Positions 26,257-59,119 of a DNA stretch of 64,000 nt are shown piece by piece (within the stretch, counting starts at the first letter, position 1; each line of letters begins with the position of its first letter). A program made the position numbers and the translations under genes. The notes under the pieces are model-generated. The model saw only the letters and a program-made list of their open reading frames with translations, searched no databases and was not told the DNA's origin. Source of the DNA: Anthoceros angustus (lineage: Eukaryota; Plantae; Anthocerotophyta); the NCBI GenBank assembly GCA_010909165.1, contig MU008154.1:1353478-1417477 (forward strand). The letters run 5' to 3'.

Positions 26257-26546
26257 TTGGTAGCTGGAAATAGAATCTTCCACAAGCTTCTTTTTCATTG
26301 GGAGGTTGTTCACACCAGTGCTGATAATTCATCCATCACTCTCTTACGGGATGATGCTTCACAGCGAACCTTTCCTTCTCCTTGGCTTTCACGATTTGCT
26401 CTTGCTGCAACGCCCGACGAGGTTGGTTTTAGGTTATCTCCACGGAGGTTTAGGTCAACGAAGAGCTCTACATAGTCTGCGAAGTTGGGCGCTTGAATTC
26501 CTCGAAACCCAACAAGCTTTGATCGTGCCCGTGTTTCATCTTTGTA
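26257..26546. promoter_or_regulatory. Probable bidirectional promoter between the MAN1-like gene and PPAN
   Basis: Divergent start codons ~290 bp apart (26256 minus, 26547 plus). Confidence 0.6.
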
Positions 26547-28903: not shown

Positions 28904-29280
28904 GCAGACTGATTAATTTGTAATCACACCCGAGGCGGGCATCTCTCCGCCCGGCCAGTTGTCCATTTTTTGTACTTCAACCTAGCAAGCCCTCTTTGTA
29001 CCATCTCTTATGTGAAAGAGCCAGCGTATCGGTTGCAACTCTACTGCTGAAGATTCGAGCGGACAAACGGAATCACAAGAGTGCTAGTACTCAAGAGCTT
29101 AAAGAACAGCAGAATCCGCTTGACAAAACGTCTGCGCGACTCAACCTACCGTTGCAATTCACACAATAGTGCAACAAGACGATTTACTGTCACATGATCA
29201 AATGACATGTGGCCGTTCCTAATCAATGTTCCAAAACATCTGCCAAAATTTCATCCAACAGGTACAGAAGACTGCACCCT

Positions 29281-30093: not shown

Positions 30094-30181
30094 CTTGTCC
30101 GGGGGCTGGCAGGGACGCGAAACCGCTGCAGATCCGAGAACGCGGATTCTGTTGTTTTTTTAGGTCTTGAGTATTGGCACT

Positions 30182-30414
30182 CCTTGTTGAACTAGCACCA
30201 ACAATGGAAACAGGTGAGATGGTAGATTTACGGCCTTCCCACTTCAGCTTGTCTGGAGGCGGAGACAAACGATCCTCAGCGGGCTCGAGTGCTCTGAACC
30301 TACGGCCCCTGCGGATTAGGCCTGAAGTCCAGATGGCCTCTGCAGGATCAAATCCGAGAACAGAAGGGGAAGGTTTGCTTCTGCTTCGACTTGGGATCCT
30401 GCCTCTCTGGTCAT
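30182..30414 (-). pseudogene. 5' fragment of the MAN1-like gene (duplicate) with an early 4-nt indel
   Basis: Matches 26020-26256. CTTCGTATGGATCC in A is CTTGGGATCC in B, giving a 32-aa ORF (ATG 30414, TAA 30318-30316). Confidence 0.85.
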
Positions 30415-30703
30415 TTGGTAGCTGGAAATAGAATCTCCCACAAGCTTCTTTTCATTTGGAGGTTGTTCACACCAGCTCTGATAATACATTCAGCTCTCTC
30501 TCACGGGATGATGCTTCACAGCGAACCTTTCCTTCTCCTTGGATTTCACGATTTGCTCTTGCTGCAACGCCCGACGAGGTTGGTTTTAGGTTATCTCCAC
30601 GGAGGTTTAGATCAACGAAGAGCGCTACATAGTCTGCGAAGTTGGGCACTTGAATTCCTCGAAACCCAACAAGCTTTGATCGTGCCCGTGTTTCATCTTT
30701 GTA

Positions 30704-32957: not shown

Positions 32958-33385
32958 AAGCGAAGGCGAGCATAAGCGTCCAAGGCTGACAATGGGCGGA
33001 ATCACCGCACGCAGTAGGCAGACTGATCAATTTCCAATCACACCCGTGGCGGGCAGCTCTCCGCCCGGCCGGTTGTCCATTTTTGTACTTCAACCTAGCA
33101 AGCCCCTCTTTGTATCATCGCTTATAGTAAAGAGCCAGCGTAACTCTACTACTGAAAATCCAAGCGGACAAACAGAATCACAAGAGTGCTGACACTCAAG
33201 AATTTAAAGAAGAACAGAATCCGCTTGACAAAACGTCTGCGCGACTCAGCCTACCATTGCAATTCACACAATGGTGCAACAACACGTTTTACTGTCACAT
33301 GATCAAATGACATGTGGCCGTTCCTAATCAATGTTCCAAAACATCTGCCAAAATTTCATCCAACAGGTACAGAAGACTGCACCCT

Positions 33386-34198
<813 letters not shown>

Positions 34199-34561
34199 CT
34201 TGTCCGGGGTCTGCCGGGGACGCGAAGCCGCTGCAGATCCGAGGACGCACCGCAGAAAGCAGCTGGCAGCGGCAGCAAAGGGGTTCGCTACAGAGAGAGA
34301 AGGAGAAAATATACGAAGAAACCCTAACAGAGAGAGGCTGGCAAGGAGTAATCGGGTAACCAGCCTAAGACAAGAGGGAGTATATATAGACTCTATTTGA
34401 CGAGCCCTCGGTATCAGATATGGTGAACCCATCGTTTCTCTCGGTATATTCTGGTTAGGGTTTGTGAAAACCCTAACGAGACGATACCGAGAGACGATGG
34501 GTTCAGAAACTGTGTCGAGACATACTGAAGAGGCGATTTTGAAGGTCCGTCGGCACAGGAT
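34199..34561. promoter_or_regulatory. Probable bidirectional promoter RPS18-B/SCAI with telo-boxes and an 82-nt hairpin
   Basis: AAACCCTAA at 34319-34327 and 34468-34476; TTAGGGTTT at 34455-34463; inverted repeat 34424-34505. Telo-boxes are typical of plant translation-machinery promoters. Confidence 0.7.
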
Positions 34562-36487
34562 ATGGCGTACCCTGCCGGAGCTTCCGGCATCACACCAATA
34601 GAGGAATACCGCGCCCTGGTGGACAAGGCATATAGCAAGTTTTCTCGGCTGCGGGAGTTTCCTCCTTATGGGCGGAACAAATGGGAGTTTTATTTTCACA
34701 AGGCTTTTCAAATCTACTCCAGGCTATGGAGATTTCAGCAAGAGAACCGGCAGAAGCTGGTGGACTCTGGGTTGAAGAGGTGGGAGATAGGCGAGATTGC
34801 TTCCCGGATCGGGCAGCTATACCACAGCTACTATTTGCGGACCAGCGAAGCTACTTTCCTGTGCGAGTCCTACATCTTTTACGAGGCCATTTTGCACCGG
34901 GAGTACTTCAAGGAGACGGGGAAAGATCTGACATTGGCCAACAAGCAGCTGCGTTATTATGCCCGCTTCATCGTCATATGCTTGTTGTTGAACAAGCGGG
35001 ATGCTGTGCAGAATCTGGTGAAGCAGCTGCGCGCTCTGGTGGAGGAGTACTCTGCCGCCTTTCAGGGTAGCGATGGTAAGGAGTGGAAGATCGTGTATCA
35101 GGAGATTGCCAGGTTTCTGAAGGCCGATGCTCCGTGTGAGAATACTCGGCCTTTGAGGTATAGCTTGTTGCTGGACCCGCACCCAAGCTCGTTGCCGTCG
35201 CCTGTGAGCTTGGAAGGACTGGAGCCGCTGAAGTTGCAGGATGCGGTTCTTGCTAGCTATTATCATAATGAGGTGAGGTTCAGCGAGCTGACGCTGGATA
35301 CCTTCAGGATGCTGCAGGCCATAGAATGGGAGCCGAGCGGTGCGTTCTATCGGATGAGGAACTTGGATGCGGCTAATGCCTCAGCTTCGAACGGGACCTT
35401 GCCTCCTCCGCACAGGGTGGATGACATCACTGATCCCAGTTTGCCTGCGAATCCGCACAAGTATATTCTCTACCGTCCGACTGTACCACAGCTCCTGATT
35501 GTACTAGCTACAGCTGTGGAGGAGCTCTCATCCAATTCTATCCTCCTCCTCTACTTGTCGGCTTCTGGAAAGGCAGCGAAAGGGTCTGCTTCGCACCCGA
35601 CGTCTTTTTCGAACTCCTCGAGCAGCTTGAGTAATTTGTCACACGATGTCGTCGCTGAGGAGGTTGTGGTTGAGCGGAAGGATGTGGCTGAGAACAGGGA
35701 TAGCCACGTGAAGGGAGCTGCTGCGGGCGGTTTGGTTGACGGGATATGGCTCGGGTCACGTAGAAATCCTTCCCTGAACTATCTGTACCCCAGTGATATT
35801 CTCCCCTTCACAAGGAGGCCTCTGTTTGTCATCATCGACAGTGACAACAGTTCTGTTTTTGAGAAAATCAACGGCGAGGAGAGAGGAGAACCGGCCTTGC
35901 TACTGCTGTCTCCTACCATCCAACCTTCTGATGACAGAGGATCATTGGCATCTTCACTTGGGAGCGGGAGTCTGTTCACCTTCTTTCTCACTGCACCCCT
36001 GCTGGCTTTCTTACGGCTTCTGGGCATCTCCATCGGTCAATTGTCACAGGCCACGTACGAACAATTGGAGAAGACTATTCAATCTGTGTTTGCCGAGTGG
36101 GGAGAGATTCTTGCAACGTCGACAAGCATCAATATCCTGTGGGCTCGTATCCTGCTAGACCCTTTCCTCAGGCAGCTGGTTCTCAGGTTTGTCTTCTGTC
36201 GAGCTTGTTTCTCCCTGCATACAAGTTCTCGGGACGGGCCTGAATACATTCCCCGATGTCTGCCACCATTGCCGGAGGAGTTGATACCCCGCTCGAACGC
36301 TGTGGAAGCTGGCTTGTTGGAACTATCCCAGAGTCTTGGAATGGCAGAGCAATTCACGTTTTCCGCGGCCACTGAGGCAGATCCAGCACCGGGCCCAGCT
36401 GTTGCCAGCAATGGAAGTATGGCAGAGGATCAGATGATTGAAAAGAAGTTGTCTGACCTTGGAGTAACCAGGAAGGACGTAAGATAG
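34562..36487 (+). CDS. SCAI: Protein SCAI homolog (single exon, 641 aa)
   Basis: [36 protein letters not shown]...YLRTSE; [12 protein letters not shown]; [34 protein letters not shown]; [11 protein letters not shown]; [16 protein letters not shown]. Confidence 0.93.
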
Positions 36488-38310: not shown

Positions 38311-39504
38311 TTATGCACTGCTTGCCCTAATGACATGGTTTTCAGAAGCCGTGTCCACGGCATGCCATTCATCCGGCCCCCCAGCCATTTTATCTGGTCT
38401 CTGGATGGCACATTGGTGACAATACCACTCACCATCTGGTATCACCTTGAGTGGAGGGCGCAGGCAGAACACATGATAGCCTCTGTTACATTTATCACAT
38501 AGTATCATCAGCTCTAGGTCCGTGATGTGACCACCAAATTTGCAAGGCAAGTCAATCGGTGGCTTCCAAGCCTGCGGTTGTGTCCTCGTATCTAGGTTGG
38601 GCAGGTGACATGGTGCCAAATGACGCATGTGCTCCTTGCACCGTCGTCCATCCTGTCCTTCCAACTCAATGACTCCCTGCTCACCCACACTCACCACCCG
38701 TAAAATCAGACGTCTAGAACTCACATCCAACGTGCCTGAAGGCCGATGCTGTAAGTACACAAAGTCCCCCACTTCAAACTTCCTCGCCTTGGGTTTCCAT
38801 GAGCCACCTCGCGTAAAGGCATACCGGAGTTGGTCTCGGTGTTGTGCGATCGCTAAGTTGTCCATCGCCATTGGGATTACTCGCTGAAACAGCTTGGCTC
38901 GGTGTTGCAACTCCAAGAGACACTCTTCTGGACTCTGTGCCCAGTCTATCGGTTGAGAATAGGTATCCGCAACAATATTTGGCATCACAGCGTTCCGTCC
39001 AAACATAATGTAATACGGGTTGAAGTTGCCCAGTGCCGCTTGTACACTGATCCTATATCCCAATGCCACATATGGTAACAACTCATCCCAGCAATCGGGT
39101 TCAACCTCAGTGCAGTATTTGCGGAGAGAATCCTTGAAAGTTTGTACTAACCGTTCAGCCAACCCGTCAGCTTGAGGATCGTCCCGGGATGTGCGGCGAT
39201 GGTCTATCAGGCTCCGGTCCAACAATGCTTGGAATTCACCACGAAACTCGTTGCCTTGGTCCATCAATACTTCTGCACAGCTCCCATATCTGCTGATAAC
39301 ACACTGTAGAAATGCCCGGGCCGTATACTTGGAGCTTCTGACCGGAAGAAAAGCCATCTCGACCCACTTTGAAACGTGCTCTATCATCAACATGCAGTGC
39401 TTGTTGCCCTGGCTTGTCACTGGCAGTTCAGGCATCAGATCAACGGACCATCTGAAAAACAATCCCTTAATAGGCAGCGAATGTAATACCATCATCACAA
39501 ACAC
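38311..39504 (-). CDS. Retrotransposon integrase core, GPY/F-like region and C-terminal PHD finger
   Basis: 397-aa open frame with DDE core; KFEVGDFVYL; CKFGG...MILCDKCNRGYHVFCLRPPLKVIPDGEWYCHQC at 38411-38544. Confidence 0.88.
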   Translation of the reverse strand: MFVMMVLHSLPIKGLFFRWSVDLMPELPVTSQGNKHCMLMIEHVSKWVEMAFLPVRSSKYTARAFLQCVISRYGSCAEVLMDQGNEFRGEFQALLDRSLIDHRRTSRDDPQADGLAERLVQTFKDSLRKYCTEVEPDCWDELLPYVALGYRISVQAALGNFNPYYIMFGRNAVMPNIVADTYSQPIDWAQSPEECLLELQHRAKLFQRVIPMAMDNLAIAQHRDQLRYAFTRGGSWKPKARKFEVGDFVYLQHRPSGTLDVSSRRLILRVVSVGEQGVIELEGQDGRRCKEHMRHLAPCHLPNLDTRTQPQAWKPPIDLPCKFGGHITDLELMILCDKCNRGYHVFCLRPPLKVIPDGEWYCHQCAIQRPDKMAGGPDEWHAVDTASENHVIRASSA

Positions 39505-40332
39505 TTACCTTCACTTGCATCGTGCCACCACATCGGCCTTCCCGACCCGAGTATGTATTCTTCAGCATGTGGTGTGTTCTCTTAACACCAAAGTGCCCCA
39601 GCGTCTTGTGCACCTTGGTCACCAATGGTCTTCTTTCTTCCACGGGTGGCACCTCCTTGCTCACCCCTCGATCAATCACAAGCACCTTACCGTCCTTGTA
39701 GGTATAGCGAGCGATTCTTCGTTGTAACTTCTGAAGAGCCATTGCGTCCAAACCAGCTACATGCCCATCCCACAACAACTGAATGGCATGCTCGAGTTTC
39801 CATATGTCTCGACCCCCTTTTGATAGCTGTTGTTCGCTTCCTGGTTCCATGGACATCAATGCCAGGTACATGCTGGGCACGTGCTGAGTAAACCCGAAGT
39901 CTTGTCTGGCTCTAGTGGTGTCTCCTGCCCCACACATCGGATTTGTGCTGAGCCCATCGGCATTGAGATGCACCTTCCCTGCCCGGTGCACAATCTGCAT
40001 GTCGTATTCTGACAATAGCAAAGCCCATCTACCAAGCTTCCCGCTCAGTTTCATATTTGTCATCAGCCAGTGCAATGGCTAATGATCCATGACTAGCTGA
40101 AAACTTCGGCCAAACAAATATACTCAAATGCGAAGCGCCCTGACGAGACACTCTCCTTCATAAGGCAGGTAATTAGCCTCGCAGGTGTTGTTAGATCTGC
40201 TTTCGCATAGGCGACGACCTGCTCTCCTTCCTCTGTCAGGCACGCACCGATGCTCAAGCTGCACTCCAATCATATACAAGAGAGGCTTGCGAGGTGGGCC
40301 TTTTAAGCATTGGTCTCTCGCCAATTGTTCCT

Positions 40333-40994
40333 TTAACTCCCACGCTTGCTCACATTCCACCTCCCATTGCTAAGTGGGCTTAACCTTTCGTACAATGGCT
40401 TGCAGATTCCGCTCATGTTTCTGATAAACCGATGATAGTAATTCACCAGCCCCAGGAACGCGTTCAAGGCGGCCACATCTTTGGGTGTGGGCATGAGACT
40501 CACCGCCTGTACTTTGGCCAACTGTGGCAGCACCCGCCCTGGTACAATCTTATGCCCCAAGTACTCTATCTCCCTGTATGCGAACTTACATTTCCTTGGG
40601 TGGGCCTTCAGCCCAGACTTGGCCAATCGCTGCAGCAGCACTTCTAAGTGCTCAAGGTGTTTCTCCAGACTATTGCTGAACACTAGAATGTCATCTATGT
40701 AGCACTTGACAAACGACAACCCTTGTAGTTCCAAGTCAGCCACTCGTTGAAAGTATATGGATGCATTCTTCAAGCCAAACGGCATGGTTTCCCACTCCCA
40801 CAGCTGCTCTTTGCCCCAAAACGCTGTCTTGCATTTGTATTTCTCTTCAATCACAATCTGATTGAAACCGGATCGAAAATCAAGTGTGGCGAAGTATTTG
40901 GCCTCTCCAATGGTGTCAAAGATCTCATCCGGAGTGGGCATGGGATACCGTTCTATGGGAGTTATTTCATTCAAGGCTCGGTAATCTCCACACA
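40333..40994 (-). CDS. Reverse transcriptase domain (3' part, downstream of the CACTA insertion)
   Basis: CGDYRALN...YPMPTPDEIF...TLDFRSGFNQI...KTAF...MPFGLKNA...YIDDILVFS...FLGLVNYY. Confidence 0.93.
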
Positions 40995-43857
40995 TACTAC
41001 TAGGAAAACCAGCACTTTACTACCCCTTCAAAACTAGAGAGAGGGGGTTTTTAGACGTCTGTTCGTTTTACAACGGGGTTTTCAGCCCATGTATTATTTT
41101 TGTATAGATTTTAGCACTTTACAACATGGGTTTGATGTTTTACAATGTGGGGTATTTTTTTACGGTATATTTTGACAACGTGGCACTCTTTAGGAGTTTT
41201 TATAATGAGGGTTTGCAAGATTATAACAAACTATAGTTTTCAACATGGGGTTTATACAACGCGGGCTGCCATAATTACAACACAATGTCTTACAACGATA
41301 GCGGGTGTTTTACAACTCGGGGTATATAACGTCGTCTATTCTAATTACAACACGGTGTCTTTTACAACCTTGGCTCATGTTTAACAAAATGATTTTTACA
41401 ACACAGAATATGCTTTTTACAATGGGGCTTCTTTTACAGCAATAGCTTGAATTTTACAACATTGCTTTTACAACACATGAATGTATATTTACAACACAAT
41501 ATTTTATTTTTAAAACTATCTCTGACTTAGATTTGTAATTTGCATAGTAAAGAGTTTCTGTTGTATAGGGCCACGTCCATTTTACAACTAGGGTCATTAT
41601 AATTTTAAATAATTTAGATTTCTCCTTGTAACTTGCGGTGTAAAATGTAGATGTTGTAAAATTATAAATCTTTTTTACAAGAAGTATCAGTAAAATAATT
41701 TCGTAATCAAAATTTCAATTGTAAACCGCATTGTAAATCGTGGGACATAGTTTGCTAGTGCAATGTTTTGTCTTCTTACAACACTTTCTTTTTCTTAACT
41801 AAAGAACTTTAAGGTTTTAAACAAACCGTTTACAAGAGATCAAACTCAAAGAGAGTGTATGGGTTACATGGACAAGCTATTAAAGCTGGAACCAGCAGAA
41901 TGTACTTATTCCTTCTAAAACAAGTCATTTTCCTCTTGCACTAGTCCGAGCAACCATCTTATTGTCATAGAGATCCATCGACGGATGGGCCACACTTGCG
42001 GACGTGAAGTGGTGCTGGGCTTATTCACCATAGTAAAAAAATAAGGACGAGGAAGTACCGTAGTGAAAAAATAGAGACAGAGAGGTGATGTCGTGGTTGT
42101 TCTACAAGGTAAAACAAGTAGCATTTACTACTTAAATAAATGACATGAGGTGTACAAATGTTCACATGGATAAAGGCTTCCCGTATCTCAATGTCCCGCG
42201 GAGGAGACGGGATTCGAGCTCGCGCCCCGGCGCTCACCACCATTAGGCTCTACCACTCCAGTAACTCGTTTACTTACAGATGACTGTCATTAATTTTATT
42301 ACAATTTTAAACTACGAAACGCTTGTCTCCTTTTTCTTTATCTGTCCAGACGTTGGACTTGAGTGCAAGGCTCGGGATCGAAAATCAAGTGTGGCGAAGT
42401 ATTTGGCCTCTCAATGGTGTCAAAGATCTCATCCGGAGTGGGCATGGGATCTGGATTCTATGGGAGTTATTTCATTCAAGGCTCGGTAATCTCCACACAT
42501 ACTACTAGGAAAACTGACTTTACTACCCCTTCAAAACTAGAGAGAGTTTTAGATGCAGTTCGTTTTACAACGGGGTTTTCAGCCCATGTATTATTTTTGT
42601 ATAGATTTTAGCACTTTACAACATGGGTTTGATGTTTTACAATGTGGGGTATTTTTTTACGGTATATTTTGACAACGTGGCACTCTTTAGGAGTTTTTAT
42701 AATGAGGGTTTGCAAGATTATAACAAACTATAGTTTTCAACATGGGGTTTATACAACGCGGGCTGCCATAATTACAACACAATGTCTTACAACGATAGCG
42801 GGTGTTTTACAACTCGGGGTATATAACGTCGTCTATTCTAATTACATGTTGTCTTTTTACAACCTTGGCTCATGTTTAACAAAATGATTTTTACAACACA
42901 GAATATGCTTTTTACAATGGGGCTTCTTTTACAGCAATAGCTTGAATTTTACAACATTGCTTTTACAACACATGAATGTATATTTACAACACAATATTTT
43001 ATTTTTAAAACTATCTCTGACTTAGATTTGTAATTTGCATAGTAAAGAGTTTACATTGTAGGGTATCCATTTTACAACTAGGGTCATTATAATTTTAAAT
43101 AATTTAGATTTCTCCTTGTAACTTGCGGTGTAAAATGTAGATGTTGTAAAATTATAAATCTTTTTTACAAGAAGTATCAGTAAAATAATTTCGTAATCAA
43201 AATTTCAATTGTAAACCGCATTGTAAATCGTGGGACATAGTTTGCTAGTGCAATGTTTTGTCTTCTTACAACACTTTCTTTTTCTTAACTAAAGAACTTT
43301 AAGGTTTTAAACAAACCGTTTTACAAGAGATCAAACTCAAAGAGAGTGTATGGGTTACATGGACAAGCTATTAAAGCTGGAACCACTGACAGAATGTACT
43401 TATTCCTTCTAAAACAAGTCATTTTCCTCTTGCACTAGTCCCGACAACCATCTTATTGTCATAGAGATCCATCGACGGATGGGCCACACTTGCGGACGTG
43501 AAGTGGTGCTGGGCTTATTCACCATAGTAAAAAAATAAGGACGAGGAAGTACCGTAGTGAAAAAATAGAGACAGAGAGGTGATGTCGTGGTTGTTCTACA
43601 AGGTAAAACAAGTAGCATTTACTACTTAAATAAATGACATGAGGTGTACAAATGTTCACATGGATAAAGGCTTCCGTATCTCAATGTCCCGCTGGAGGAG
43701 ATGGATTCGAGCTCGCGCCCGGCGCTCACCACCATTAGGCTCTACCACTCAGTGCTAACTCATGATGATTATTAATTTTATTACAATTTTAAACTCGAAA
43801 CGCTTGTCTCCTTTTTTCTTTATCCGTCTGGCAGGACTTGAGTGCAAGGCTGGATCG
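40870..43857. repeat. ~1.5-kb tandem duplication spanning the RT/CACTA boundary
   Basis: Second copy of ~125 bp of RT plus the CACTA left end at 42375 onward; GGATCG at 40870, 42375 and 43852. Confidence 0.9.
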
Positions 43858-45376
43858 TGCGCGGCCGGGGCCGGCGAGCTCGCGTGGAGGCGGCGGGAGG
43901 CGGAGGAGGGTGTGGGCGCATCAAGCCAGTAGGGTTTGGCGGCTTAGGAGATGGCGGATGATGCATCGCCACGGCAATGCCTCGCCAGCAGCCTCTTGCA
44001 CTGGGCAAGGCGGTACTGTTGGACTCCCTCTCATGGTGTGGTGCTGTAAGAGCTACAAGGAGCTCTGCATTGTCTAGCATTTTAAGATGGTGGTGAAGGT
44101 ATCTTGGTGATTTTCCATGGCTATTCAGAGGCTCGCTTGAGCGGGAGGGAAGGACCCGCCTGCATGAGGCGGGATGTGCGTGAGGTTACGTCTGCAGCCC
44201 GTCACGAGGACCTAGCCGATTTGAGGCGAGCTCTGCCATATCTCACGCCAGACGGAGCGGATCTGGGCAGCACGCTCTGATACCTCTGCTGATTTCTTTA
44301 TAGCTACTGCAGCCGGGTGCAAGGACGGTTGCAAGGCGACAAATGGTAACATGTGTGCTTGGACTTGAGGGTGCTGTGGGAACTCTAGGTCTTGCTATGA
44401 GAAGAGAACACATCATCAATTATGGGAGACCGTGGACTCAACGCTTTGCATTTGAAGGTAACACATAAATTGCATGTGCTAATTGGGGCTTGTTGCTAGT
44501 TGCAGCTTGCTGCTTTCCCAAGCTACTTCTGCTGACATCTCAGCTTCTTGCATAGGATCACTAGGCTTATTTATCCCTTTCCAAGAACTTCATGTGGATG
44601 TCTCACAGATTCTTAGAATAGCCTTCCGATGTTTTGGCCGTGTTGTTGCAACAGATTGGGCAAATGTATCCATCGTTGAAATGTTCACAATATGACTCCG
44701 CAGTATCCCTACCCTTGTTTAGCCCTGTAGGTAGTGTTTGAATAACTTATATTGTTATTTTACAACGATAGCTTTTATAAGGGTTTGAATTTTTTGGCGG
44801 GAAAAGATTTATAACGGTTTGCATTTTTTGGCGGGAAAAGGTTTACAATGGTTTGCATTTTTTGGCGGGAAAACGTTTACAACAGTTTGAATTTTTTGGC
44901 CGGAAAAGGTTTACAACGGTTAGAATTTTTAGGGGAAAATATTTACAACCATGGAAACCATTATAATGGTTTGAATTTTTTTGGGGGGAATATTTACAAC
45001 GATTTGAATTTCTTTGGGGGAAATATTTACAACGATACAAACCATTTACAACAGAATTTACACTGGTTAATAAACCCTAAATATTTAACTAAAATATTTA
45101 ACTGTGGTTAATAGAACCCCAGTTATAATACCAGAGTTAATATATTGTAGTTACTTAACCTGACTATAATGACTATGGTTAGCCTGTACAATACGATCAT
45201 ATAAAATACTTGTATACCATACGTAGGAATATATACATCTAGTATATACACTTTGAGAAAATTACAACGCAAATTACTAAGGGGTGTTTACAACAGTCAT
45301 TCTACAACGGTCGTTGTAATGCTGCTGTAAAGTCCGTTGTAAAGTCCATTGTAAAAGGCTATTTTTCCTAGTAGTG
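40995..45376. mobile_element. Non-autonomous CACTA (En/Spm) element inserted in RT
   Basis: Left TIR TACTACTAGGAAAA (40995-41008), right TIR TTTTCCTAGTAGTG (45363-45376), 13/14 match. 3-bp TSD ACA at 40992-40994 and 45377-45379. Many TTTACAAC subterminal repeats. Removing it restores KDRRMCGDY in frame. No transposase ORF seen. Confidence 0.92.
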
Positions 45377-45879
45377 ACATCCTTCTATCCTTCCACTCGC
45401 CAGGTTCATCCTTCTTGAGTGGCAACACTGTAGTCAGCAAAGATATTGCGATCGATCAGCCCCAAAAGCAAGCTCCTTGCACCGCTTGTCTACGATGTCC
45501 CATTCCATGGGGCTCAATTTGTGTCTTCTCCGGAACACAGGTTCATTGGTGGTGGTGGTAATCTTGAGCTTGATGCGATCATACCACCCCAGCTCGGCCA
45601 AACTTAATGCAAAAGTGCCTCGATTTCTGTGTAACATGTCCCGGATCTTCTGCTGCTCAGCCGGTTGCAAATCTTCACATATTTGCCAGTCATCGATCGG
45701 ATTCTCGTGGTCCTCTCCTCGCGGCGATGAAACGGGCACTGCCGCGTGTGCGGCATGTTTTCGTTTGTCGGGTGTAGGTGTGTGTTCCTCTTCTTCATCA
45801 CGTATCAGCAGAGGCTCCCTGCCGTCCTTTCGGCACATGGCCATCTGTATGGCCAAGCCCACACTTACCAACCATCACA

Positions 45880-46807
45880 TACAAGCTATGTCGAAGGCTT
45901 GCCCGATCAACCTGCACCGGAATGATTCAGACACACCAGCTGTGAGAGTACCACCTGCGCCAAACCCCATGGCCCGTTCTCGCTCTATTATTGTAGGCTT
46001 CCCTACTTCATTTCCGTTCGTGTCCACCACCATGCCTTCTCCTCCTTTCCTAAACGCATATGATTGTACGGTCCTGACGAGTGTGGGCCATGCCCTTCTC
46101 GATTTTCCCACCACGTTCACTGGGTAGTGTGGTAACTTATCTCCCTTGCGCACTTGCTGTGAATGTCAACCTGGATCCAAGATGTCGTCTACATAGCGTT
46201 GTTCCGGTACCGTCAACTGCCGGTGATGCCTCAGGGCTGTCACACTGCTCACATTTGTCCAGAAGCTCCGCACCCGATGCGCGTACGAGCCTGTCTGCAC
46301 GGCATCTATGATAAACTCCTCCCCCAACTAGCTTCTGAGTTGCCCATATTGTTTCCTGATATGCTCACGTTTGTCGAAAGCACCACACACATTTTCGAGC
46401 ACATACCAACAGGATGGGTTAGTCGCCTGCACTTCCCGCAAGATCCGAATGACTTCCATTGCCAATTCCATACCATTGCCTGTGCCACGACCGGCTGTGG
46501 AGAAAGTTTTGCATTCCCATCCTGCGATCAACATATCTACTGGGCACCTAATAGCTTCAATCTGTCGCTTTCCTACCAACAGAATGTCCGCAGGCAACCT
46601 GCTCTGGCATCCTTTGATTGCCTCCCTACTCAACAACTTGGGGTTTTCCTTCTGCAATCGAATGACTTCCATTGCCAATTCCATACCATTGCTGCACGCC
46701 CTCTCATCCAGCTCGACACATGTATATTTTCTTTTCTGAATTCCACTCTTGAGCACTGCCTCTAACCCGCTGTTGATCCCAGAGCACAGCTCTTTGAGAT
46801 GAATGCC
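45880..46807 (-). pseudogene. C5 cytosine DNA methyltransferase domain within the retrotransposon pol frame
   Basis: Motif I LKELCSGINSGLEAVL; motif II YTCVELD; motif IV VDMLIAGWECKTFSTAG (Cys codon 46511-46513); motif VI YVLENV (46388-46396); motif VIII DAVQTGSYAHRVRSFWTN; motif IX/X ERERAMGF...RCRLIGQAFD. One frame with two internal stops (46328-46330, 46166-46168). Confidence 0.85.
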
Positions 46808-48281
46808 CCGCCTGTCCGCTTTCCAATGAATTACCTCACTGTTGATCCGCAGCTTAGTCTAGTTCAAGACCGGCATTTTAGGAAGACTGTTTTCTGGGCA
46901 CAGACTGGTCACGAGACACTCTTGAGCCTGCTCTTGTCCGATGTGTTCTCTTGCTAACGCCTGTACCAACTGCCGGGTTTTTCTGACATACATGAAAGCA
47001 CTTGTCCCGTGATCATCCAATAACAGTGTTTCTCAGCATAGGGGTTTGTCTCCGACCCCCATTTTGGCCCCAACCATCTAGAAATGCACATGTCTCATTT
47101 CACTGTTTTCAATGATTTGCGAACCTACAACCCATGCATCCGAGCCCAAAAGAAGACCTAATGTGCCCACCGTCCGTACAAATGCCGGACATACATTTGT
47201 ACCAAGTGGTCAGATGATCAGCACTTATGCTCCAAAGAGACCTAATGTGCCCACCGTCCGCACTTATACTCCAAAGAGGTGCAATACACGGTTTGGAGAG
47301 GTTGCGTCAATACTTGTGTAGGCAAAACACTTTCGTTCAAGTTGCTTGTGCACACTTGCCACCGCACCAACACTCACATCAATTCTCTTTTCAAACCCCG
47401 TGATTGAGCAATCCAGACGGCGGGCATACCTGTCGACTCGGCCCCTCCGTGTCGAGATAAGCGCACTTAGATCTCGCAGATTAGGCTCAGCAGAATTGGA
47501 CAAGGTAAAGGATGGTGAGGCCTCCTCAACCCTTCTTGATCAAACTCTTCGTAGCTTACATTTCTTCTTGTCAAGTCCGCATCGCTTTCAACCTTAATCT
47601 ATCCATGGGTGGCACATGGAGCAAGTCGATCTTAAATTCAAAATCTCCGCAAAGCTTGGCTATAGTTCGCTCGAACACCTAGCCGCGCCATACCGTAGCT
47701 ACGGTATAGACAGTCCTCCTTCGAGCCTCACCGAAATACTCACCATTTGGTCAAAACCCCATAGGGCGACCCTCTTTCTTCTTCTCACCGGCTCACTAGG
47801 GGCAGTGCATGCTCTCTTATACTTGTGTTCGATCGCATCCGATGCTTTCATTACTCAAGGACAAATCATCTATTCTATTTATTTTCTTACTTCTCTGCAA
47901 AACATTGTAAAACATTGTCGACTTCAAAAGGTTGGCCATTACAAACCACCATCATACATGTCAAATTTTGGAAAATGTAGCTCATATAGAGACCAATGCC
48001 CATGCATCTATACGTGCATCAAACTCGAATAAGCCGGACATTTGGCGCACCAATCAAAAAGATCCAGCTGCAAGTCATCAGTAGGGGCATATACAGTAAG
48101 GGCCAAAAAGGTTTTACATGTTGTATACAAAGCGAATGTGGGAACATAACATCAACCAACAAATGATTTTCAAAAATAATATTCATGACTTTACTCCTAG
48201 ATACCGGGATGATTTACAAATTTTTCAAACCACTAAAAATCAACACTCCATCTTGGTACTGATCCGCCTCTAGGTTGCTAA

Positions 48282-49100
48282 CTAGTGGAGTTGTGACAAA
48301 ACGTGAAGGAGCATTTTCCGAGCGTCCCCCTTCGATGTGGGCATCGAATTTATCTTCAGCAGAATAGAAGTGGAGAGGAGTTGGAAGATTGTTGTCATCG
48401 CTGAGTCGGAAATCTTGAAGCGCTCTTGCAGAGTTAGGAAGGCCAGTGCACTAGATAACCGTGTGTGATGAGACTCATCCGGCGCTAAAACAGTCCACAA
48501 GGGCTTGCTTGCTTTCGATTCCAAGCCGGCCTGGGCATCCTGCGGCACACCGGCCATGAACTGCCGAATGGCCTCTGCCAAGCGGTCAGCATCCCCAATT
48601 TCCTGAACCATGCTCACACCCCTGGCGACGCAAGCATCGGAATGGCCTCGTCTTCTATCATTTGCGTACCCGGGTTTGTGGGAACATGTTGAGGTGAATT
48701 GGGGCAGGAGGCGGCGTCAAGGGCTGCAGGTGCAACTTGCGGGAAGGCCGGGTCAGCATCGGGCATCGGGCATCGGGCATCGGGCATCGGGCATCGAGGG
48801 GTAGATGTGTGCATGTGTAGAGTGGAGGTCACCGTCGTCTGGCCGCACCTGCAGCACAGAAGATGGGTGGTGAGGAGCTCATCCATCCAGTCAAACAAGC
48901 CCCACACATCTGCCACAATTTCCAAAAAACAGTGATGGTGCCTAACCTCCATGAGGAGCCGCACCCAAGATCTCTCATGTCGCGCTGCAATGTCCGCATG
49001 AATTGGGCGAGTGTTTTCCGCGCATTGAGGGCATTGGCATAGCACTCGAGGGATCTGCCAATTTGAGCAAGGGAGATCCATGGGCTGCCGACGAGGGTTC
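48282..49100 (-). mobile_element. Probable CACTA/En-Spm TnpD-like transposase N-terminal remnant
   Basis: VLCQCPQCAENTRPIH (transposase-associated zinc-like motif), followed by RLSSALAFLTLQERFKISDSAMTTIFQLL...MPTSKGDARKML, which resembles the TnpD N-terminal helix region. Confidence 0.5.
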
Positions 49101-49504
49101 CGCATCACGTTTGGTCTGAGGGTATGGACCAGTGAAGTAATTGGAGCTGTCGAGAAAGCCGTTGGATTTTTTGACGGTCCGTTGGCAGACCCCAACGGAT
49201 AACCTGGAGTCATGCACCCGGCGGAGAGGGGAGAGGGGTTTGATAGATGACGGTACATGTGCAAGCCAGGCCAGACGTTGGTGGCACATGCTGCCGGGTC
49301 AGTGTTGCACGGTTCCGCCCGTCGGTCTAAACAAGCGCGTTGGGCAGACCAACGGGTGCACGGTAACCAAACTTCGGTTGGCAGGCAGGTTGGGTAACCC
49401 TCCGATAAGCGTAGTTGGGAAGGACGACATTAAGACGAAAGTGCACCACATCATATTGGATGAATGACGACCCAAGGTAATTGTCTTAACCGCCCAGTAC
49501 TGTC

Positions 49505-52500
49505 ATATTTAAATGATGAAAATCACCCGTCATAGGGATTGTCTTATATGGATTGTCATATTCGACTGCATTTTGTAGTAGTGAGTCCATTGTGCAGACT
49601 CTGGCCTCCCACAACTCCCAACAACACAGCATGTCCACCACAACTACATAGATGAAACACGAAGAATGAAAGACCAACTGAGACATATCAAGGAAGTGAG
49701 TGATATGCTTGGTAGCGTCTTTGGAGCCATTCTCAACCATTTTGTGTCCTTTGTGTTTGATGAGGCGCAAAGCAAGCTCAGGCGCACAATCTTGTCCTTG
49801 ACATACCACGAAACAATGTCATTCCGTGTCTTCCTAACGCACCACCGCGTGACCACAATTCACCATGTTGATGCCCTTGCGAGAGTTTAGTGCACGATAT
49901 AGCCTCCCTCGAGCTCCTGCTCTGTAGAGGCGGTGAGGAAACGAGATGGCTCTCATGGATGTCCTCCTACGGTGATGTTGAATAGTGTGTTCCTGGCCCT
50001 CAGGTGGTCTCCAAATTGCACACCCTTTAGACTTGTACATGCATCCGTCACATTCTTCAATATCAAGGCTACAAAGTGGCTATCCTTTGATCTGTTCAAT
50101 ATTTGAATGGTACTCCTTTATGAGGGCAAGTGGCCAAAAGTGCCAAGATGTCCTTCCCGCATGATGATGTGTACGCAGAAGTGAGTGACAAAAAATGTTG
50201 CCCAAGTCGGCAAGCTACTCGTTGTTTTGCACGGAGAGAGCACTCTCGACTCCCCCTGGAGGCAGAATAGCTCACTCCACTTTCGGGGCGTTATGTCGGC
50301 GGGTTTGCACAGCCACCACCCTCATGTCATCCCTCCCCTTGAGGGCATCTAGCCCTTGTTGTTCATCCTCCTCGATAACTTCTTTGGATGTTTTGCATTG
50401 CGGTTGTTTAGGCCTGCCTTTCCCTCGGCCAGCCACCGACCCATGCTCACCCTTTGGTGGCGGGCGACCACAACACCATCATCGGCGTACCTCGCATACT
50501 ACCTCCATGACTCTACACTTTACCAAAAAAGCTTGAGTTTAGCTGTGAACATGAAAAATCAAGACCCAACATGTAAGAGCGACGCAAGCTTGCAGGCATG
50601 CGACGCAAATTACCACAATGTCGGCAATGAAATCTAGTCCCGGACCACACACCGCAGCAACAATAACATGGGGCCTTGACCTAGGCAAGCAGTGAAAACA
50701 ACACAACTCTTGAATCTGCGGAGGCCTCTTGTGGGAGAAGCGGTAACCAAGAGGAAGCGCAACAAATTCCCACTACGGCGACGCCGAGCCAACCAATACA
50801 CGGCAATATCAACGAGCGTAATAGCACCAACATCTGGCGAACCTAGCATCTCGCATCCACCACTAGATCAGCAACAGCTCATCATCCATAGGTGCACTAG
50901 CATCAACATCCATCCTGCCAAAACCTGGCAGTCTCCTTCACTCAATGAGCAAATCTGGCTGGATGCTGGTTTGGTTGCAACATAGTTTGACCACAGCGGA
51001 GAGCAACCACGCCTTGGGTTCTTGAGTGTTATCACCCACGAGTTCCCTCCTTCTCCACATCGGACAAATGGCAGTGCACAGTGCCTCATGTAGCGACCTT
51101 CGCTAGAGCGTGAGTTCCCAACCACGATTTCCTCGGCCTTGGCGGTTCTCGAGGTTGACTCGTTAATACGAGTTGAGCGATGGTAATCAACCCGATCCAC
51201 CGGGTAAATAATTCAATTCAAATTCCCGCCATAAGGTGGCGGGCCACTGGCAGTTCATCCCACAATTGTGGCTAAACGAACTTTGTCGTGGACAAACCGT
51301 ATAAGGCGAAACGGTTGTTTATGTGAAATGGATATTATAATAATCTATATATTTTCATAAATTAACCCCAAATAAAACAACTCTTGTACTATAAGCTCTA
51401 AAAAGTTAGATACATCCGAGGGCGAAATGAATTACATATATTTAAATGATGAAAATCACCCGTCATAGGGATTGTCTTATATGGATTGTCATATTCGACT
51501 GCATTTTGTAGTAGTGAGTCCATTGTGCAGACTCTGGCCTCCCACAACTCCCAACAACACAGCATGTCCACCACAACTACATAGATGAAACACGAAGAAT
51601 GAAAGACCAACCTGAGACATATCAAGGAAGTGAGTGATATGCTTGGTAAACGTCTTTGGAGCCATTCTCAACCATTTTGTGTCCTTTGTGTTTGATGAGG
51701 GGCGCAAAGCAAGCTCCCAGAACTGCACAATGCTGTCCTTGACATACCCTGAAACAATGTCATTCCGTGTCTTCCTAACTGCACCACACCGTGACCACAA
51801 TTCACCATGTTGATGCCCTTGCCGAGAGTTTAGTGCACGATATAGCTGCCTCCTACTGACTCCTATCTGCCGAGACAGTGAGGAAACCAGATGGCTCTCA
51901 TGGATGTCCTCTGTCAGACTGATGTTGAATAGTGTGTTCCTGGCCCTCAGGTGGTCTCCAAATTGCACACCCTTTAGACTTGTACATGCATCCGTCACAT
52001 TCTTCAATATCAAGGCTACAAAGTGGCTATCCTTTGCAGTCTGTTCAATATTTGAATGGTACTCCTTTAGCAAGGGCAAGTGGCCAAAAAGTGCCAAGAT
52101 GTCCTTCCTGCATGATGATGTGTACGCAGAAGTGAGTGACAAAAAATGTTGCCCAAGTCGGCAAGCTACTCGTTGTTTTGCACGGAGAGAGCACTCTCGA
52201 CTCCCCCTGGAGGCAGAATAGCTCACTGCTCAGCTCTCCACTTTCAGACGCGTTATGTCGACGACCGTTTTGCCTGGCCACCACCCTCATGTCTGTCCTC
52301 CCCTTCGAGGGCATCTAGCCCTTGTTGTTCATCTTCCTCCTCGATAACTTCTTTGGATGTTTTGCATTGCGGTTGTTTAGCTGCCTTTCCCTCCGACGCT
52401 TACGGCCCATGCTCACCGTGGCTTCTTTGGTGAGGCGAACCACAACACCATCATCGGCGTACCTCGCATACTACCTCCATGACTCTACACTTTACCAAAA

Positions 52501-53453
52501 AGCTTGAGTTTACTGTGAACATGAAAATCAAGACCAACATGTAAGAGCGCAAGCTTGCAGGCATGCGACGCAAATTACCACAATGTCAGCAATGAAATCT
52601 AGTCCCAGACCACACCGCACAGGAGCAACAATAACATGGGGCCGCGGCCCTAGGCAAACGTAGAAAACAACACAACTCTTGAATCTGCGGAGGCCTCTTG
52701 TGGGAGAGCAGTAACCAAGAGGAAGAGCGCAACAAATTCCGCACTACCAGCAGCATCGGGAGCCAACCAATAACACCAGCAGCCAATATCAGCAGAAGCG
52801 TAATAGCACCAACATCCTGTAGCGAACCTAGCATCTCGCATCCACCACTAGATCAGCAACAGCTCATCATCCATAGGTGCACTAGCATCAACATCCATCC
52901 GCCCATGCCAAAACCTGGCAGTCTCCTTCACTCCAATGAGCAAATCTGGCTGGATGCTGGTTTGGTTGCAACATAGTTTGACCACCGCGGAGAGCAACCA
53001 CGCCAGGTTCTTAGTGTTATCACCCACGAGTTCCTGCTCCTTCTCCACATCGGACAAATGACAAGTGCACAGGTCTGCTCATGGCAACGACCTTCGCTAG
53101 AGCGTGAGTTCCCAACCACTGATTTCCTCGGCCTTGGCGGTTCTCAGAGGTTGACTCGTTAATGCCAGAGTTGAGCGATGGTAATCAACCCGATCCACTG
53201 GGTAAATAATTCAATTCAAATTCCCGCCATAAGCTGACGGGCCCTGGCCGGTTCATCACAATTGTGGCTAAACGAACTTTGTATCTGTGGACAAACCCGT
53301 ATAAGAGAACTGAACAGTTGTTTATGTGAAATGGATATTATAATAATCTATATATTTTCATAAATTAACCCCAAATAAAACAACTCTTGTACTATAAGCT
53401 CTAAAAAAGTTAGATACATCCGAGACGAAATGAATTACATATATTTATATGAT
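49505..53453. repeat. ~2-kb tandem duplication carrying a degenerate minus-strand, probably DNA-transposon-derived ORF
   Basis: Copies start at 49505 and 51438; ORF 51489-52226 (RKTRNDIVSGYVKDSIVQFWELALRPSSNTKDTKWLRMAPKTFTKHITHFLDMSQ) is broken by indels in copy 1. Confidence 0.85.
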
Positions 53454-53868: not shown

Positions 53869-55367
53869 TCAACCTTGGTTTGTGGTGAGGGGATAGTGCG
53901 CATAGATATAACTCTCCACATCCCACAAGAAGCTACCAAATGCAACAGCCTCCATCAGCAGTCTTCTTTGCGTAAAGTAGTACAAACTGAGATAATCATC
54001 CTTCCCGATTATCAGCTTCCCATCTGGTCCAACCTTGACATCAAGCTCGCCAAACAGAGCGTCAACTTGCCTCTTTATCAAATCGAGACTCTCCTTGGTC
54101 CTCACGGTGGCAGCTCTATGGAGAGATTCCGCATTGAATGACATAATATACGATCTCAACTTGCAAGAGTACCCTTGGAATGCCAAAATGCCTTTGGCAC
54201 GAGCTGACAAATTATGCCACGCCATGTTTTGCATATCCTGAACTAGCTGGGCTGCCAGCTGGTCACCTTTAGTCAAAGGGTGTTGGTTGCCAAGGGTTTG
54301 CCTAGAATCCGCAGCTTGAGCAAAATAGGGCGTCGGCATCTTCATCCAGCTCTTCTCAAGCTGGTATCTTTGATCCACCCGCCTCAAGAAGTAGCCAAAC
54401 AAGATGGAGGTGGCATACACCTTGCCATATGATAGCTTGCTAATCGTATTCGGGATGTGTTGATTCACCCAATCGGACGATTCATCCCCTTTTATCACGT
54501 AGTATAAATGCTCTTTCACCATCTCAAGGGCTTCAGCCGAGTGCATGCACTCCAACTCGTTCACCATATGGGGCCCCAAGTGCACCAACACAGGTTCCTC
54601 TCCCACCTGCTGCGGCAGCTTCGTCACCATAGGCAACTCGCATTCTAGAAACTTCTCTACCACCAACGCGTACATCGTCTCCTCAATAGCTTGCCTCCTT
54701 CGATTAGTACGCTCAACATCTGCAATGCTCCTGCTAAACAAAACAAATAACTCACACCCTCAGTACCCCGCTCCAACAACCCCAAAATCCACGAAACAAG
54801 CAACACATTTTCACTGCAGACTCACTTGCACAACAGTAGTTCTGTTCGAAATGGGCTGGCGTCCTGCGAAGAAGCGGCATCCCTCTCCATGGCTAGATGC
54901 TCCAGCTGAGAATCCACAGCAACACGGAGCAGATGCGGGCACTTTTCCAACAACATGAGAAGGAACTGGCCGATGTTAGAGCTCGGCATTAGAGGCGCAA
55001 CAGACTTCTTATCCTCCTCCTCCTCTGCCCCTGGCCCTCCACTGGTGGCCACACTCATGACACTCCTCGATTTGGCCAAGCCTTTGCTCTTCTTCCCAAC
55101 GGGGACTCCAAATAACCTCTTTGTCTGCACATCTCAAACAAACCCAACTAACCAAATGAGTACATTCACACTCCACCACATCCATTTTCAACTCTAAGAC
55201 TCGATTGCCATCCACCTCACCTTGATCCCTGCCACGAAGAGCCTAGAGAAGCTTGCAGGCGCGAGCTTGGGCATGGACACCCGAGATGAGCCATTGGCTT
55301 GAAGCATAGAATTGGTCCCAAAAGCTGGCCCCACCTTCACAATAGCAACCATACGCAGGGCAGCCAT
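53869..55367 (-). CDS. DUF760 / UV-B-induced At3g17800-like protein, probably plastid-targeted (3 exons)
   Basis: Ser/Ala-rich N-terminal exon (ATG 55367); APLMPSSNIGQFL...AVDSQLEHL; RRQAIEETMYALVVEKF; HSAEALEMVKEHL; YATSILFGYFLRRVDQRYQLEK; LRSYIMSF; EAVAFGSFLWDVESY; GT-AG introns. Confidence 0.88.
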
Positions 55368-56119: not shown

Positions 56120-56710
56120 AAGAGAAGAAGATTGCCTACCTTGTTCTCTTGAATCAAAAGTTCTAACCCTAATTAGATTCGAATCTCAATCAAAATTCTA
56201 ATTCCAATCTAATTTGAATCGAAACATAGAAGAAATATTAGGCCAAGAGGTGGAGAATGGGTTGATGGGAAAAGATATGTACATTTGCAAGTACCTTCTA
56301 TAATTTAGAGAAGAAGGTTGCCAAACTTGTTCTCTTGAATCAAAATCCAAACCCTAATTAGATTCAAATTTTAATCAAAATTCTAATTCGAATATGTGCA
56401 CACACACCAGCGGGGATAAGAACTCCGTAGTTAAGTAACCCGCGGACGGATCAGTATCAGAATGGAGTGTTGTCCCCTTGGTAGTTTGAAAATTTTGGAA
56501 GATGAGATGATGTTCCCTTGGTAGCTTGAAAAAATTGTAGGATGGGGTGCTTCCCCCTTGGCAGTTTGGAAAATTTTTAAATCAACCTAGTATCTGCGTA
56601 TGTTAGCCTCCATCGTGTGAGGTCTCAAGTGCAAGATGAAGTATTGTCCCTTTGGTAGTTTGAAAAATTTGTAAGATGGGGTGTTACCCCCCTGGTAGTT
56701 TGGAAACTGT
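56120..56710. repeat. ~185-bp direct duplication followed by 5 dispersed CCCTTGGTAGTTTGAAAA-type repeats
   Basis: TTGTTCTCTTGAATCAAAA...AACCCTAATTAGATTC at ~56140 and ~56326; short repeats at ~56476, 56514, 56554, 56646, 56688. Confidence 0.75.
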
Positions 56711-56736: not shown

Positions 56737-57720
56737 TTGTATAAAACTTTATTTGATTTGATTACTAATAATCAACCTTTGAAATGGTTGATAACAAGTG
56801 AAAAACTCATTGGGAAACTAGCCATATGGGCATTAATTATCCAAGAGTATAATTTCACAATTGAACATAGGGCACGTATTAATCACACTAATGCATATGT
56901 TTTATCCAGAAATCCATTAATTAACATTGATCTAGGAATCCATTAATTAACAGTGATGACTCAATTGGGGCAAGGCAAGATTTTGATGAGGAAAGTAGCA
57001 TGAATGTACACATGGTAATATCTAGATGGTCCCCTAGTGCATATTTGTTGATTTAGTGGAGACATCAAATGTAGATGTTCATGTAGACATTCGGGATGAT
57101 TAAAACACATTAGAGAGGGTTGAAACTGGTGACAATAAAATGCTCTAACTTTGAAGGAACATGACAAAGTATCAAAAAGAAGTAGAAGATATAAATGGGC
57201 AGATGATAAATTACTCTTTGTGGATAATATGAAAGTAGTACCAAAACCACATGTCAGGGTAGCATTCACACGCAAAACTCATGAAGACATGAGACATTTT
57301 GGTACAAAAAAGACTCTTATTTTGCTTATGAATAATTGTTATTTGAAGGGAATGATGAATGTGGTTGATTTAATGGTATCAACATGTGAAGTTTGTGATA
57401 GAGTTAAAGCAAGCTTCTCCAATAAAACAACTAAATTACATCCTTTACCAATAAGAGGTATGTTCTATAGATGGAGGTTGAATTTAGCAGGTAAATTACC
57501 AACAACAAGAAGAGGGTACAAATATGTTTTGGTAATGATTGAACATTTTTCCAAATGGATTTTCTTACTACCATTATGGGATAAGAAATCTGGTGAAATT
57601 AGTGAAGCATTTCTCAATCATGTTCTGAGTGTGTTTGGAGCATGTGCAGAAGTCCTAACAGATCAAAGAACATAATTCATGGGAGAATTTGATGATCTTT
57701 TGAATCAATACTCAATTGAT
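56737..57720 (+). mobile_element. AT-rich decayed Gypsy RNase H/integrase fragment of the same lineage as the 38-47 kb element
   Basis: QPLKWL...GKLAIWALIIQEYNFTIEHRA; H..MRHFG; CEVCDRVK; LHPLPIRGMFYRW; MIEHFSKW; ACAEVLTDQ; truncated at ~57720. Confidence 0.85.
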
Positions 57721-59119
57721 GCCCTAGAGATGTCGTCGCGGGCCTGCTAGGAGCGCGTCCAGTGTTTTCTAGCTTCTCAAGCCGGAATAGTTTGGACACA
57801 GAGTGTGCTTGAGAGTTGTGTGTGAGCAGCATTTGATTTCAGATTTCGTGTGCAATAGCAGCAGCAGCAAACTGTCTGCTTGCATCCCGGTTGCAGTGTG
57901 CGGTCTATTTTCTTTTACTCACAGTAGTTGGTGGCAGCATGGCTGAAAGGAAGTGTGGAGGGCGCAAGCTAGATGTGTTTGTGGTGGATAGTGTCAGCAA
58001 GCGGGTTTGCCACCACTGTCTTCATGAAACAAGGGCACAAGGGCGTCCGCAAATTGTGGATGATGAGAAGGTTGCAAAGTGGCAGCAGCCCTTTTGATGG
58101 GCTTACCAGGTGGACAGGCCCATGGTGCCGGAGTAGTCCTATGCAGAGCTCACAAAGTTTTTGATGCGGATTGAGGGTCATCATGGCCGTTGTCCCATCG
58201 TGTTCTAGGTGCAAGCATCATTTGGTGCTCAATTTGGTGAGTAATGGTTGAAACATCCTTCTTTTGTCCTCTTATACTGAATATAATTATATAAAATTGA
58301 TTTCGTTTCCAAATGGTCTGGTATTTTTATACCTAATAGTATTCTTATGTATGTATCTGAGGTTAAAATATGAAACTAGATTATGGAAAAAAAAACCTTG
58401 AAAAAAAAACCCCCAATCCAAAGACGCTAGGACGGCGCAAACAAGGCTTGTAGGTGATGGTGATGGCGCCTAGGGAGTGCATCATTCGAAGCCACAAACA
58501 AGTTGGCAATGTCAAGGTAGGCATCTACACGCAACAATCTGGATGCATCATGAGACACAACCTTGGAGAAACAGCCGTTGCTGCGATTGCCTATTGGGCG
58601 CGAGTGGTGGGTGGGTGAAATAGGGTAACATTTTAAGAGCTGCTGCCCTATGCACCTGCTTATAGCTCTCTTTTCTCTCTCTTTAGAGCAAAATAAAAGT
58701 TACCAGTTTTTTAACTTTCGCATTTTATAGTAAATGTTCGAGCCATTCTCAATCATTTTACCACAGTACTTTCATAGTTTTACGGATATGCTGCATACTT
58801 TCTAGGTATATTCTACTGGGTTGAAGGGGTGTACACCGGTGATTTTGGATGTGCCTTGTCTTCAGAGTAATATTTCTTTTTCTACTCATTGTACGGTCCA
58901 AATAGAAAGTTTATCATTTCCAAGATCTCGTCAAAACGGGAATATTTCTACAAGCAATGGTAAGTGTAAGAAATTTTAGATATTTGAATACAACCACTAA
59001 AAATCTCATATACTAACCTCAAACAGTGCAAACAACTCTTTTTGATTCTTCGATAGCTACAAACGAAGGTACAAACAGGGTTTAGGGTTTAGGGATTCAG
59101 TGGCCCCTCAGTTGTAGGG

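Follow-up and report, generated by a model that had tools for sequence, protein, structure and literature searches.

What is a DNA methyltransferase doing inside the coding frame of a retrotransposon? The question is raised by a locus in the hornwort Anthoceros angustus, where a sequence-only reading of a 64-kb stretch of DNA (the window, meaning the whole stretch that was analysed) had proposed a Ty3/Gypsy element whose pol frame includes a C5 methyltransferase, shared by a family of elements and present in a land plant. A profile match and uninterrupted relatives bear this proposal out. In our reading, to which we give a probability of roughly 0.8, the locus is a dead, 5'-truncated hornwort Ty3/Gypsy element with a DNMT3-type enzyme before the reverse transcriptase (RT), and active relatives likely methylate their own new cDNA. 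The identity of the element, a Ty3/Gypsy with a DNMT3-type methyltransferase, is highly probable; the inferred cDNA-methylation mechanism stands at about even odds. The window copy itself is a fossil, and it is the uninterrupted relatives that make testable why a transposon carries the enzyme class that silences it.

A decayed methyltransferase frame and its surroundings

The single minus-strand frame without a frameshift that had been traced from ~47090 to ~45480 was recovered from 47089 to 45464, with no frameshift and six in-frame stops (47080, 47035, 46861, 46330, 46168 and 45877). Each of the C5-methyltransferase motifs quoted in the sequence-only reading could be located in this frame in canonical order, with the catalytic Cys (IV), the Glu (VI) and the RxR (VIII) all present, and the frame runs on into the pre-RT linker as had been described (Table 1). 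The proposed comparison with the Pfam profile PF00145, made with the stop-masked frame (X at stops), gave a significant match (E 5.7e-6; 26.4 bits versus a curated cut-off of 22). A family profile of 19 relatives, with the window row left out, found a single site in the window's six frames (E 8e-96).

The extent originally given to the element, 45380..47090, holds from ~46882 downwards. Because similarity to relatives starts at ~46882, membership of 47090-46883 in the element lacks support. The local frameshift placed before the RT is present, although more than one shift lies between the methyltransferase frame and the RT, within ~45470-45431. The RT is split by a 4.4-kb CACTA-type insertion between ...KDRR and MCGDY...; removing the insertion (45376-40995) rejoins it as KDRRMCGDY, as anticipated; six frames of 43800-44800, the sole part of the insertion scanned, gave no Pfam match. 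The window element has the Ty3/Gypsy order RT, RNase H and DDE integrase, and its integrase/PHD frame ends at 38311.

The window copy is a dead, 5'-truncated fossil. Three of the stops (46330, 46168 and 45877) lie inside the methyltransferase domain, the loop after motif IV is damaged and neither gag and protease nor terminal repeats accompany the element; the copy is therefore dead. The sequence-only reading had rightly called it so from its stop codons and CACTA insertion, and had overlooked a 34-bp duplication. Upstream of the element, tblastn with relatives gave no match to gag or protease, and six frames of 46900-49600 gave no Pfam match. No terminal repeats were found on either side of the element, and no target duplication of this copy was found within the 64-kb window; the absence of gag, protease and repeats is consistent with truncation. 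The adjoining sequence at 47100-49500 (minus strand) has no Pfam match, and parts of it, judged by eye, resemble a decayed CACTA-type transposase.

Three tandem near-duplications occur in the window (26016-33441, 40870-43857 and 49505-53453), with blocks 88-100% identical and many small indels. This pattern suggests a noisy long-read assembly, and some lesions of the element may therefore be assembly errors. The near-duplication at 40870-43857 is either real or an assembly artefact.

Table 1. Features of the window element, with three relative loci in the last rows. Positions refer to the window unless a locus is named.
Feature	Position	Strand	Evidence
Linker remnant before methyltransferase; 5' limit of likeness to relatives	46811..46882	-	tblastn with relatives
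Predicted DNMT3-type C5 cytosine methyltransferase domain in pol frame; motifs I, II, IV, VI, VIII, IX, X	45860..46810	-	Pfam, profile, structure comparison
Motif I	46792-46766	-	
Motif II	46717-46703	-	
34-bp exact duplication, one copy; matches 3 extra residues after motif II	46659..46692	-	
Motif IV, AGWEC	46525-46511	-	
34-bp exact duplication, other copy; matches 3-residue gap in loop after motif IV	46446..46479	-	
Motif VI, ENV	46396-46388	-	
Motif VIII	46291-46253	-	
Motif IX	45985-45962	-	
Motif X	45913-45890	-	
Methyltransferase-to-RT linker and first RT residues; open to ~45464, local frameshifts after	45377..45859	-	
Pre-RT linker EPVFRRRHKL	45544-45515	-	
CACTA-type insertion splitting RT; CACTA end, 25-nt inverted termini, TGT 3-bp target duplication, 33-34-bp subterminal repeats	40995..45376	.	
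Tandem near-duplication (40870-42380 / 42375-43857, 95%); spans the insertion's end and ~125 bp of RT	40870..43857	.	
RT, RVT_1 E 1.7e-29; YIDD at 40701	40333..40994	-	Pfam
RNase H region, frameshifted	39842..40300	-	tblastn with relatives
Integrase: H2C2 zinc-binding part and rve core (E 4.8e-9); approximate boundaries	38545..39650	-	Pfam, tblastn
PHD finger, E 2.4e-10; end of integrase frame	38410..38544	-	Pfam
Integrase-type element with split A-coding-B-A-B repeats, TG..CA ends and 4-bp target duplication	L018:5637-14951		
Integrase-type element, same features	L028:5274-14943		
Integrase-type element, same features	L063:5256-14775		

Enzyme type and kinship with published elements

Among solved structures, the family profile ranked DNMT3A (1e-25) ahead of DRM (5e-16) and, last of these, M.HhaI (2e-10), and the single window sequence likewise placed DNMT3A first. 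An AlphaFold model of the domain (pLDDT 86) had DNMT3B/3A as its top Foldseek matches (E 5e-14, TM 0.67), at ~20% identity in the structural alignments. By profile ranking and fold comparison, the enzyme is thus predicted to be DNMT3-type and not permuted, with DRM, DNMT2 and bacterial enzymes less similar; the Dcm-like enzyme that had been suggested for comparison gives way to DNMT3. Animal DNMT3A and DNMT3B are the nearest solved sequences and folds, but these and plant host DNMT3 (PMC6453930) are host genes, whereas the window domain is part of a polyprotein.

The sequence-only reading had raised the case that all family members might lack the Cys and ENV residues. In the best 150 homologues, all 137 rows that cover the catalytic Cys keep it, all 146 that cover the ENV Glu do so too, and the motif VIII Arg pair is kept in 147 of 149 and 147 of 148. 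Directly before the catalytic Cys, 79 of the 137 covered rows have Glu and 48 have Pro; EC is therefore a family trait, and the Glu-for-Pro change in motif IV was rejected as a sign of decay. In motif I, 24 of 115 homologues have Cys in place of Phe.

A bacterial or phage origin was considered and rejected, the phage matches being weak (28-33% identity, E down to 7e-18, for the best 15 of 733 records). None of 25 candidates among the viral contigs searched held the element. Among prokaryote genomes, one of 393 candidates did: a 9.3-kb contig (L081:1-9285) in a cyanobacterial genome bin, which holds the element's coding region between identical 127-nt ends and is probably eukaryotic contamination of that bin. 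A feature search of the ESM Atlas was non-discriminating: two clusters made up mostly of phage tied with a streptophyte cluster at 0.96.

DNMT capture by retrotransposons in Symbiodinium and Klebsormidium had been cited as already known and is indeed published (PMC5890265), SymbioDIRS-Dnmt3 and KnitGypsy-Dnmt3 being treated there as independent captures. According to the available text of that paper, KnitGypsy-Dnmt3 of Klebsormidium nitens has the Ty3/Gypsy domain set, and its pol holds a DNMT3-type domain that is intronless and not rearranged, keeps its catalytic residues and is under purifying selection; all of this is shared here (the last in relatives). Its reported A-coding-B-A-B repeat layout recurs in relatives of the window element and is lost in the window copy. 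The K. nitens protein GAQ93235.1 is among the family matches, at ~34% identity to the window element. The two differ in host, which here is a hornwort, and in that the window domain leads on into the RT linker; of nine Klebsormidium-like proteins, eight stop 10 residues past the methyltransferase domain. A PHD finger, present in the window element, has no mention in the main text of the KnitGypsy-Dnmt3 paper (PMC5890265); in the main text of the REXdb paper, PHD, methyltransferase and methylase are all without mention (PMC6317226).

SymbioDIRS-Dnmt3 of Symbiodinium likewise has a DNMT3-type domain in the RT frame, but with a DIRS tyrosine recombinase in place of the DDE integrase (PMC5890265). 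The available text reports de novo CG methylation in yeast by the SymbioDIRS-Dnmt3 domains and no methylation in yeast by the KnitGypsy-Dnmt3 domain, a result its authors deem inconclusive (PMC5890265). EpiLTRs of Cymbomonas and Euglena are LTR retrotransposons that also combine a cytosine methyltransferase with a chromatin reader; they differ in a DNMT sister to DNMT4, an extra adenine methyltransferase and a chromodomain instead of a PHD finger (bioRxiv 10.64898/2026.05.21.726589). As hosts, the available text of later papers gives only 'streptophytes' (PMC12344493; bioRxiv 10.64898/2026.05.21.726589). The literature searched, in its accessible parts, holds no description of this kind of element from hornworts or any other land plants; supplementary trees of the later papers could include some. 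Judged by these sequence comparisons, the window element appears to belong with the KnitGypsy-Dnmt3 type, a kind already published, to which it adds a hornwort host.

Relatives, layouts and stop contexts

A phmmer scan of 1.84 billion protein representatives returned 850 clusters at E<=1e-3 and 109 at E<=1e-30. A word-seeded search with a 176-aa open stretch gave no match, whereas the full HMMER scan found these relatives. The best match, P0002, is an uninterrupted 2188-aa zf-CCHC-protease-DNMT-RT-RNase H-integrase protein whose residues 968-1392 align as a single block to window positions 46825-45470 (tblastn). This collinearity and the uninterrupted fusion in relatives confirm that the methyltransferase belongs to the pol frame family-wide rather than being a separate insertion. 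The family-wide layout shown by the relatives is gag-protease-DNMT-RT-RNase H-integrase-PHD. Among the best 150 homologues, the DNMT stands before the RT in 14 and after RNase H in 79, and 57 are too short to tell. The closest identities found to the window element are at most 40% for the domain and 53% for the RT, and Pfam overlooked the methyltransferase domain in 7 of 24 polyproteins. Two post-RNase H relatives, P0028 and P0044, have further domains: a Tudor domain of PTM/DIR17-like type that follows the PHD finger, and a G-patch domain.

A metagenome scan confirmed at least 294 stretches, of which 80 were kept; together with the locus from the prokaryote bin they make 81 loci. The methyltransferase is pre-RT in 74 of these, 26 have DNMT-RT-RH-INT-PHD as in the window and in 10 the domain is without a stop, counts that are biased by the pre-RT type of the query and come from partly redundant loci. 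Few of 30 proteins looked up had an organism: those from Klebsormidium nitens and Closterium are pre-RT or gag-protease-linked, and those from the chlorophytes Scenedesmus and Hariotina have the methyltransferase behind RNase H. The proposed land-plant lineage thus has a member in a land plant, but with named relatives in these four algae the family is not land-plant-specific.

An RT tree of 27 chosen rows (unrooted, without outside references) splits the window element and 11 other pre-RT elements from 15 post-RNase H elements with support 100/99. The K. nitens protein was left out of this tree because it has no RT. In the methyltransferase trees, post-RNase H rows lie on one side of a branch (SH-aLRT 94 and 91) and the window row has no supported position; in the integrase tree, the window row lies closest to a post-RNase H element, a position that has no support. 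The trees use subsets of the relatives' proteins under the simpler LG+G4 model. A second decayed Ty3 fragment in the window, at 56752-57738 (plus strand), has RNase H and integrase akin to the same polyproteins, with no adjoining methyltransferase seen.

Purifying selection on the methyltransferase is shown for relatives by codon-level estimates; comparisons with the window copy are saturated. The domain's dN/dS was 0.07-0.12 in four of five within-subfamily pairs (two of them near saturation), similar to the RT; the unsaturated pairs gave 0.115 and 0.087 for the domain, with 0.108 for the RT in one of these two. The fifth pair, of decayed copies, gave 0.74. A-coding-B-A-B repeats are complete in 3 of 17 relative loci examined (Table 1), partial in at least four more and absent in the truncated window copy. 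TG..CA ends and 4-bp duplications were found in three of four relative loci checked, the fourth being without the last repeat. Directly after the PHD finger, the window copy has a six-G run (38377-38382, minus strand), and relatives have a G run before repeat B; it is a possible polypurine tract.

In one subfamily (48 loci), no conserved stop interrupts the join of domain and RT, the arrangement also seen in the window; the three loci with complete A-coding-B-A-B repeats belong to this subfamily. In two others, an in-frame stop lies between domain and RT. In one of these (the L002 group), 16 of 17 loci have CAA CCY after a TAG or TAA stop; in L001, L003 and L081 the context is TAG CAG TTA in two loci and TAG CAA TCA in one. 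CARYYA 3' of a stop is a known readthrough signal (PMC4132726), from which the larger stop-bearing subfamily is one base off. The conserved stop is likely a readthrough site, predicted to separate gag-protease-DNMT from RT-RH-integrase-PHD. If readthrough operates, the enzyme would be made at gag level in the stop-bearing subfamilies.

Possible role and competing explanations

We envisage that the polyprotein of an active relative would be packed into a virus-like particle and cut by the protease, and that the methyltransferase, with SAM, would methylate double-stranded cDNA before the integrase inserts it, most plausibly in the CG context by analogy with SymbioDIRS-Dnmt3. The best solved matches of the PHD finger are CHD4, ATXR5, WSTF, DPF3, BAZ2A and KDM5A, which we take to be mostly readers of unmodified H3 tails. 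Through this resemblance, the finger may guide integration towards chromatin whose H3 tail is unmodified, so that insertion would be biased away from active promoters. A new copy would then arrive pre-marked like host DNA. The lack of methylation by the KnitGypsy-Dnmt3 domain in yeast speaks against this mechanism (PMC5890265), as does the absence of extra CpG loss in the window element.

Alternatively, the enzyme might accompany the integration complex and be directed by the PHD finger to methylate the target site or flanking host DNA rather than particle cDNA. The finger's similarity to presumed readers of unmodified H3 tails would suit this, the ADD domain of animal DNMT3 being such a reader, as would the adjacency of domain and integrase in 79 of the best 150 homologues. 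We nevertheless consider it unlikely: in the polyprotein of the window element a long stretch separates the domain from the integrase, four pre-RT polyproteins have a full integrase but no PHD finger, and in two subfamilies a stop parts the domain from RT-integrase, which points to a capsid-level role. Somewhat less likely again is retention of the domain for a non-DNA role, for example RNA methylation or nucleic-acid binding. Such a role would fit the inactivity of the KnitGypsy-Dnmt3 domain in yeast (PMC5890265) and the frequent EC for PC in motif IV and Cys for Phe in motif I, but hardly any homologue departs from the catalytic Cys, ENV Glu and RxR, the fold is that of DNMT3 rather than DNMT2, and DIRS-borne DNMT3 domains do methylate DNA (PMC5890265).

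That the element came from an alga or moss through horizontal transfer, or that it is a contaminant or mis-assembled piece, would account for the want of a close relative and for the signs of noisy assembly. Against this improbable explanation, no near-identical partner was found among algal or metagenome sequences, and the element lies between the plant genes SCAI (34529-36487) and DUF760 (53869-54759). Its decay and the later CACTA-type insertion with a target duplication indicate that it has resided in this genome for some time, though it may have arrived by an old transfer. A GRAS gene of the window (21431-23467) has 74% full-length identity to a Nothoceros aenigmaticus protein, the next full-length match reaching 52%, and pairs with Nothoceros at SH-aLRT 100 (one gene, one hornwort reference), in agreement with a hornwort host. 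Finally, a host DNMT3 retrocopy or separate insertion might have come to lie beside a Gypsy remnant by chance, as the missing gag and protease upstream could suggest. The same order and spacing in uninterrupted polyproteins and most of the 81 loci refute this, and linker homology reaches as far as the RT, leaving the chance explanation scarcely any probability.

The reading that we prefer, cDNA methylation by active relatives of a dead Ty3/Gypsy copy, can be extended to a broader picture that we offer tentatively, at well short of even odds. An old, green-plant-wide Ty3 clade may carry a writer-reader kit (DNMT3 and PHD finger) and may have spread from streptophyte algae to bryophytes, the enzyme having shifted between a pre-RT position in streptophytes and a post-RNase H position in chlorophytes, its dose tuned by fusion to pol or, via readthrough, to gag-protease, and new copies being born methylated. 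A DNMT3-bearing Gypsy had previously been described from one alga, with a putative function. The hornwort copy, the Closterium, Scenedesmus and Hariotina relatives and the 850 clusters show the family to be large, old and under-counted by routine annotation.

Transposons of Anthoceros agrestis are methylated in CG and CHG contexts, with CHH methylation nearly absent (PMC10952607). CpG depletion was considered as a trace of self-methylation in the window element and rejected: CpG observed/expected is 0.70 and 0.63 for the element versus 0.42 and 0.69 for two host genes. Since the element's CpG is no lower than that of the host genes, composition gives self-methylation no support. Elsewhere in the window, 48199-48292 is similar to 56421-56674 in inverted orientation, and 200-4400 and 15696-16599 hold families of repeats, both dispersed and in tandem, one being a 190-bp satellite-like array.
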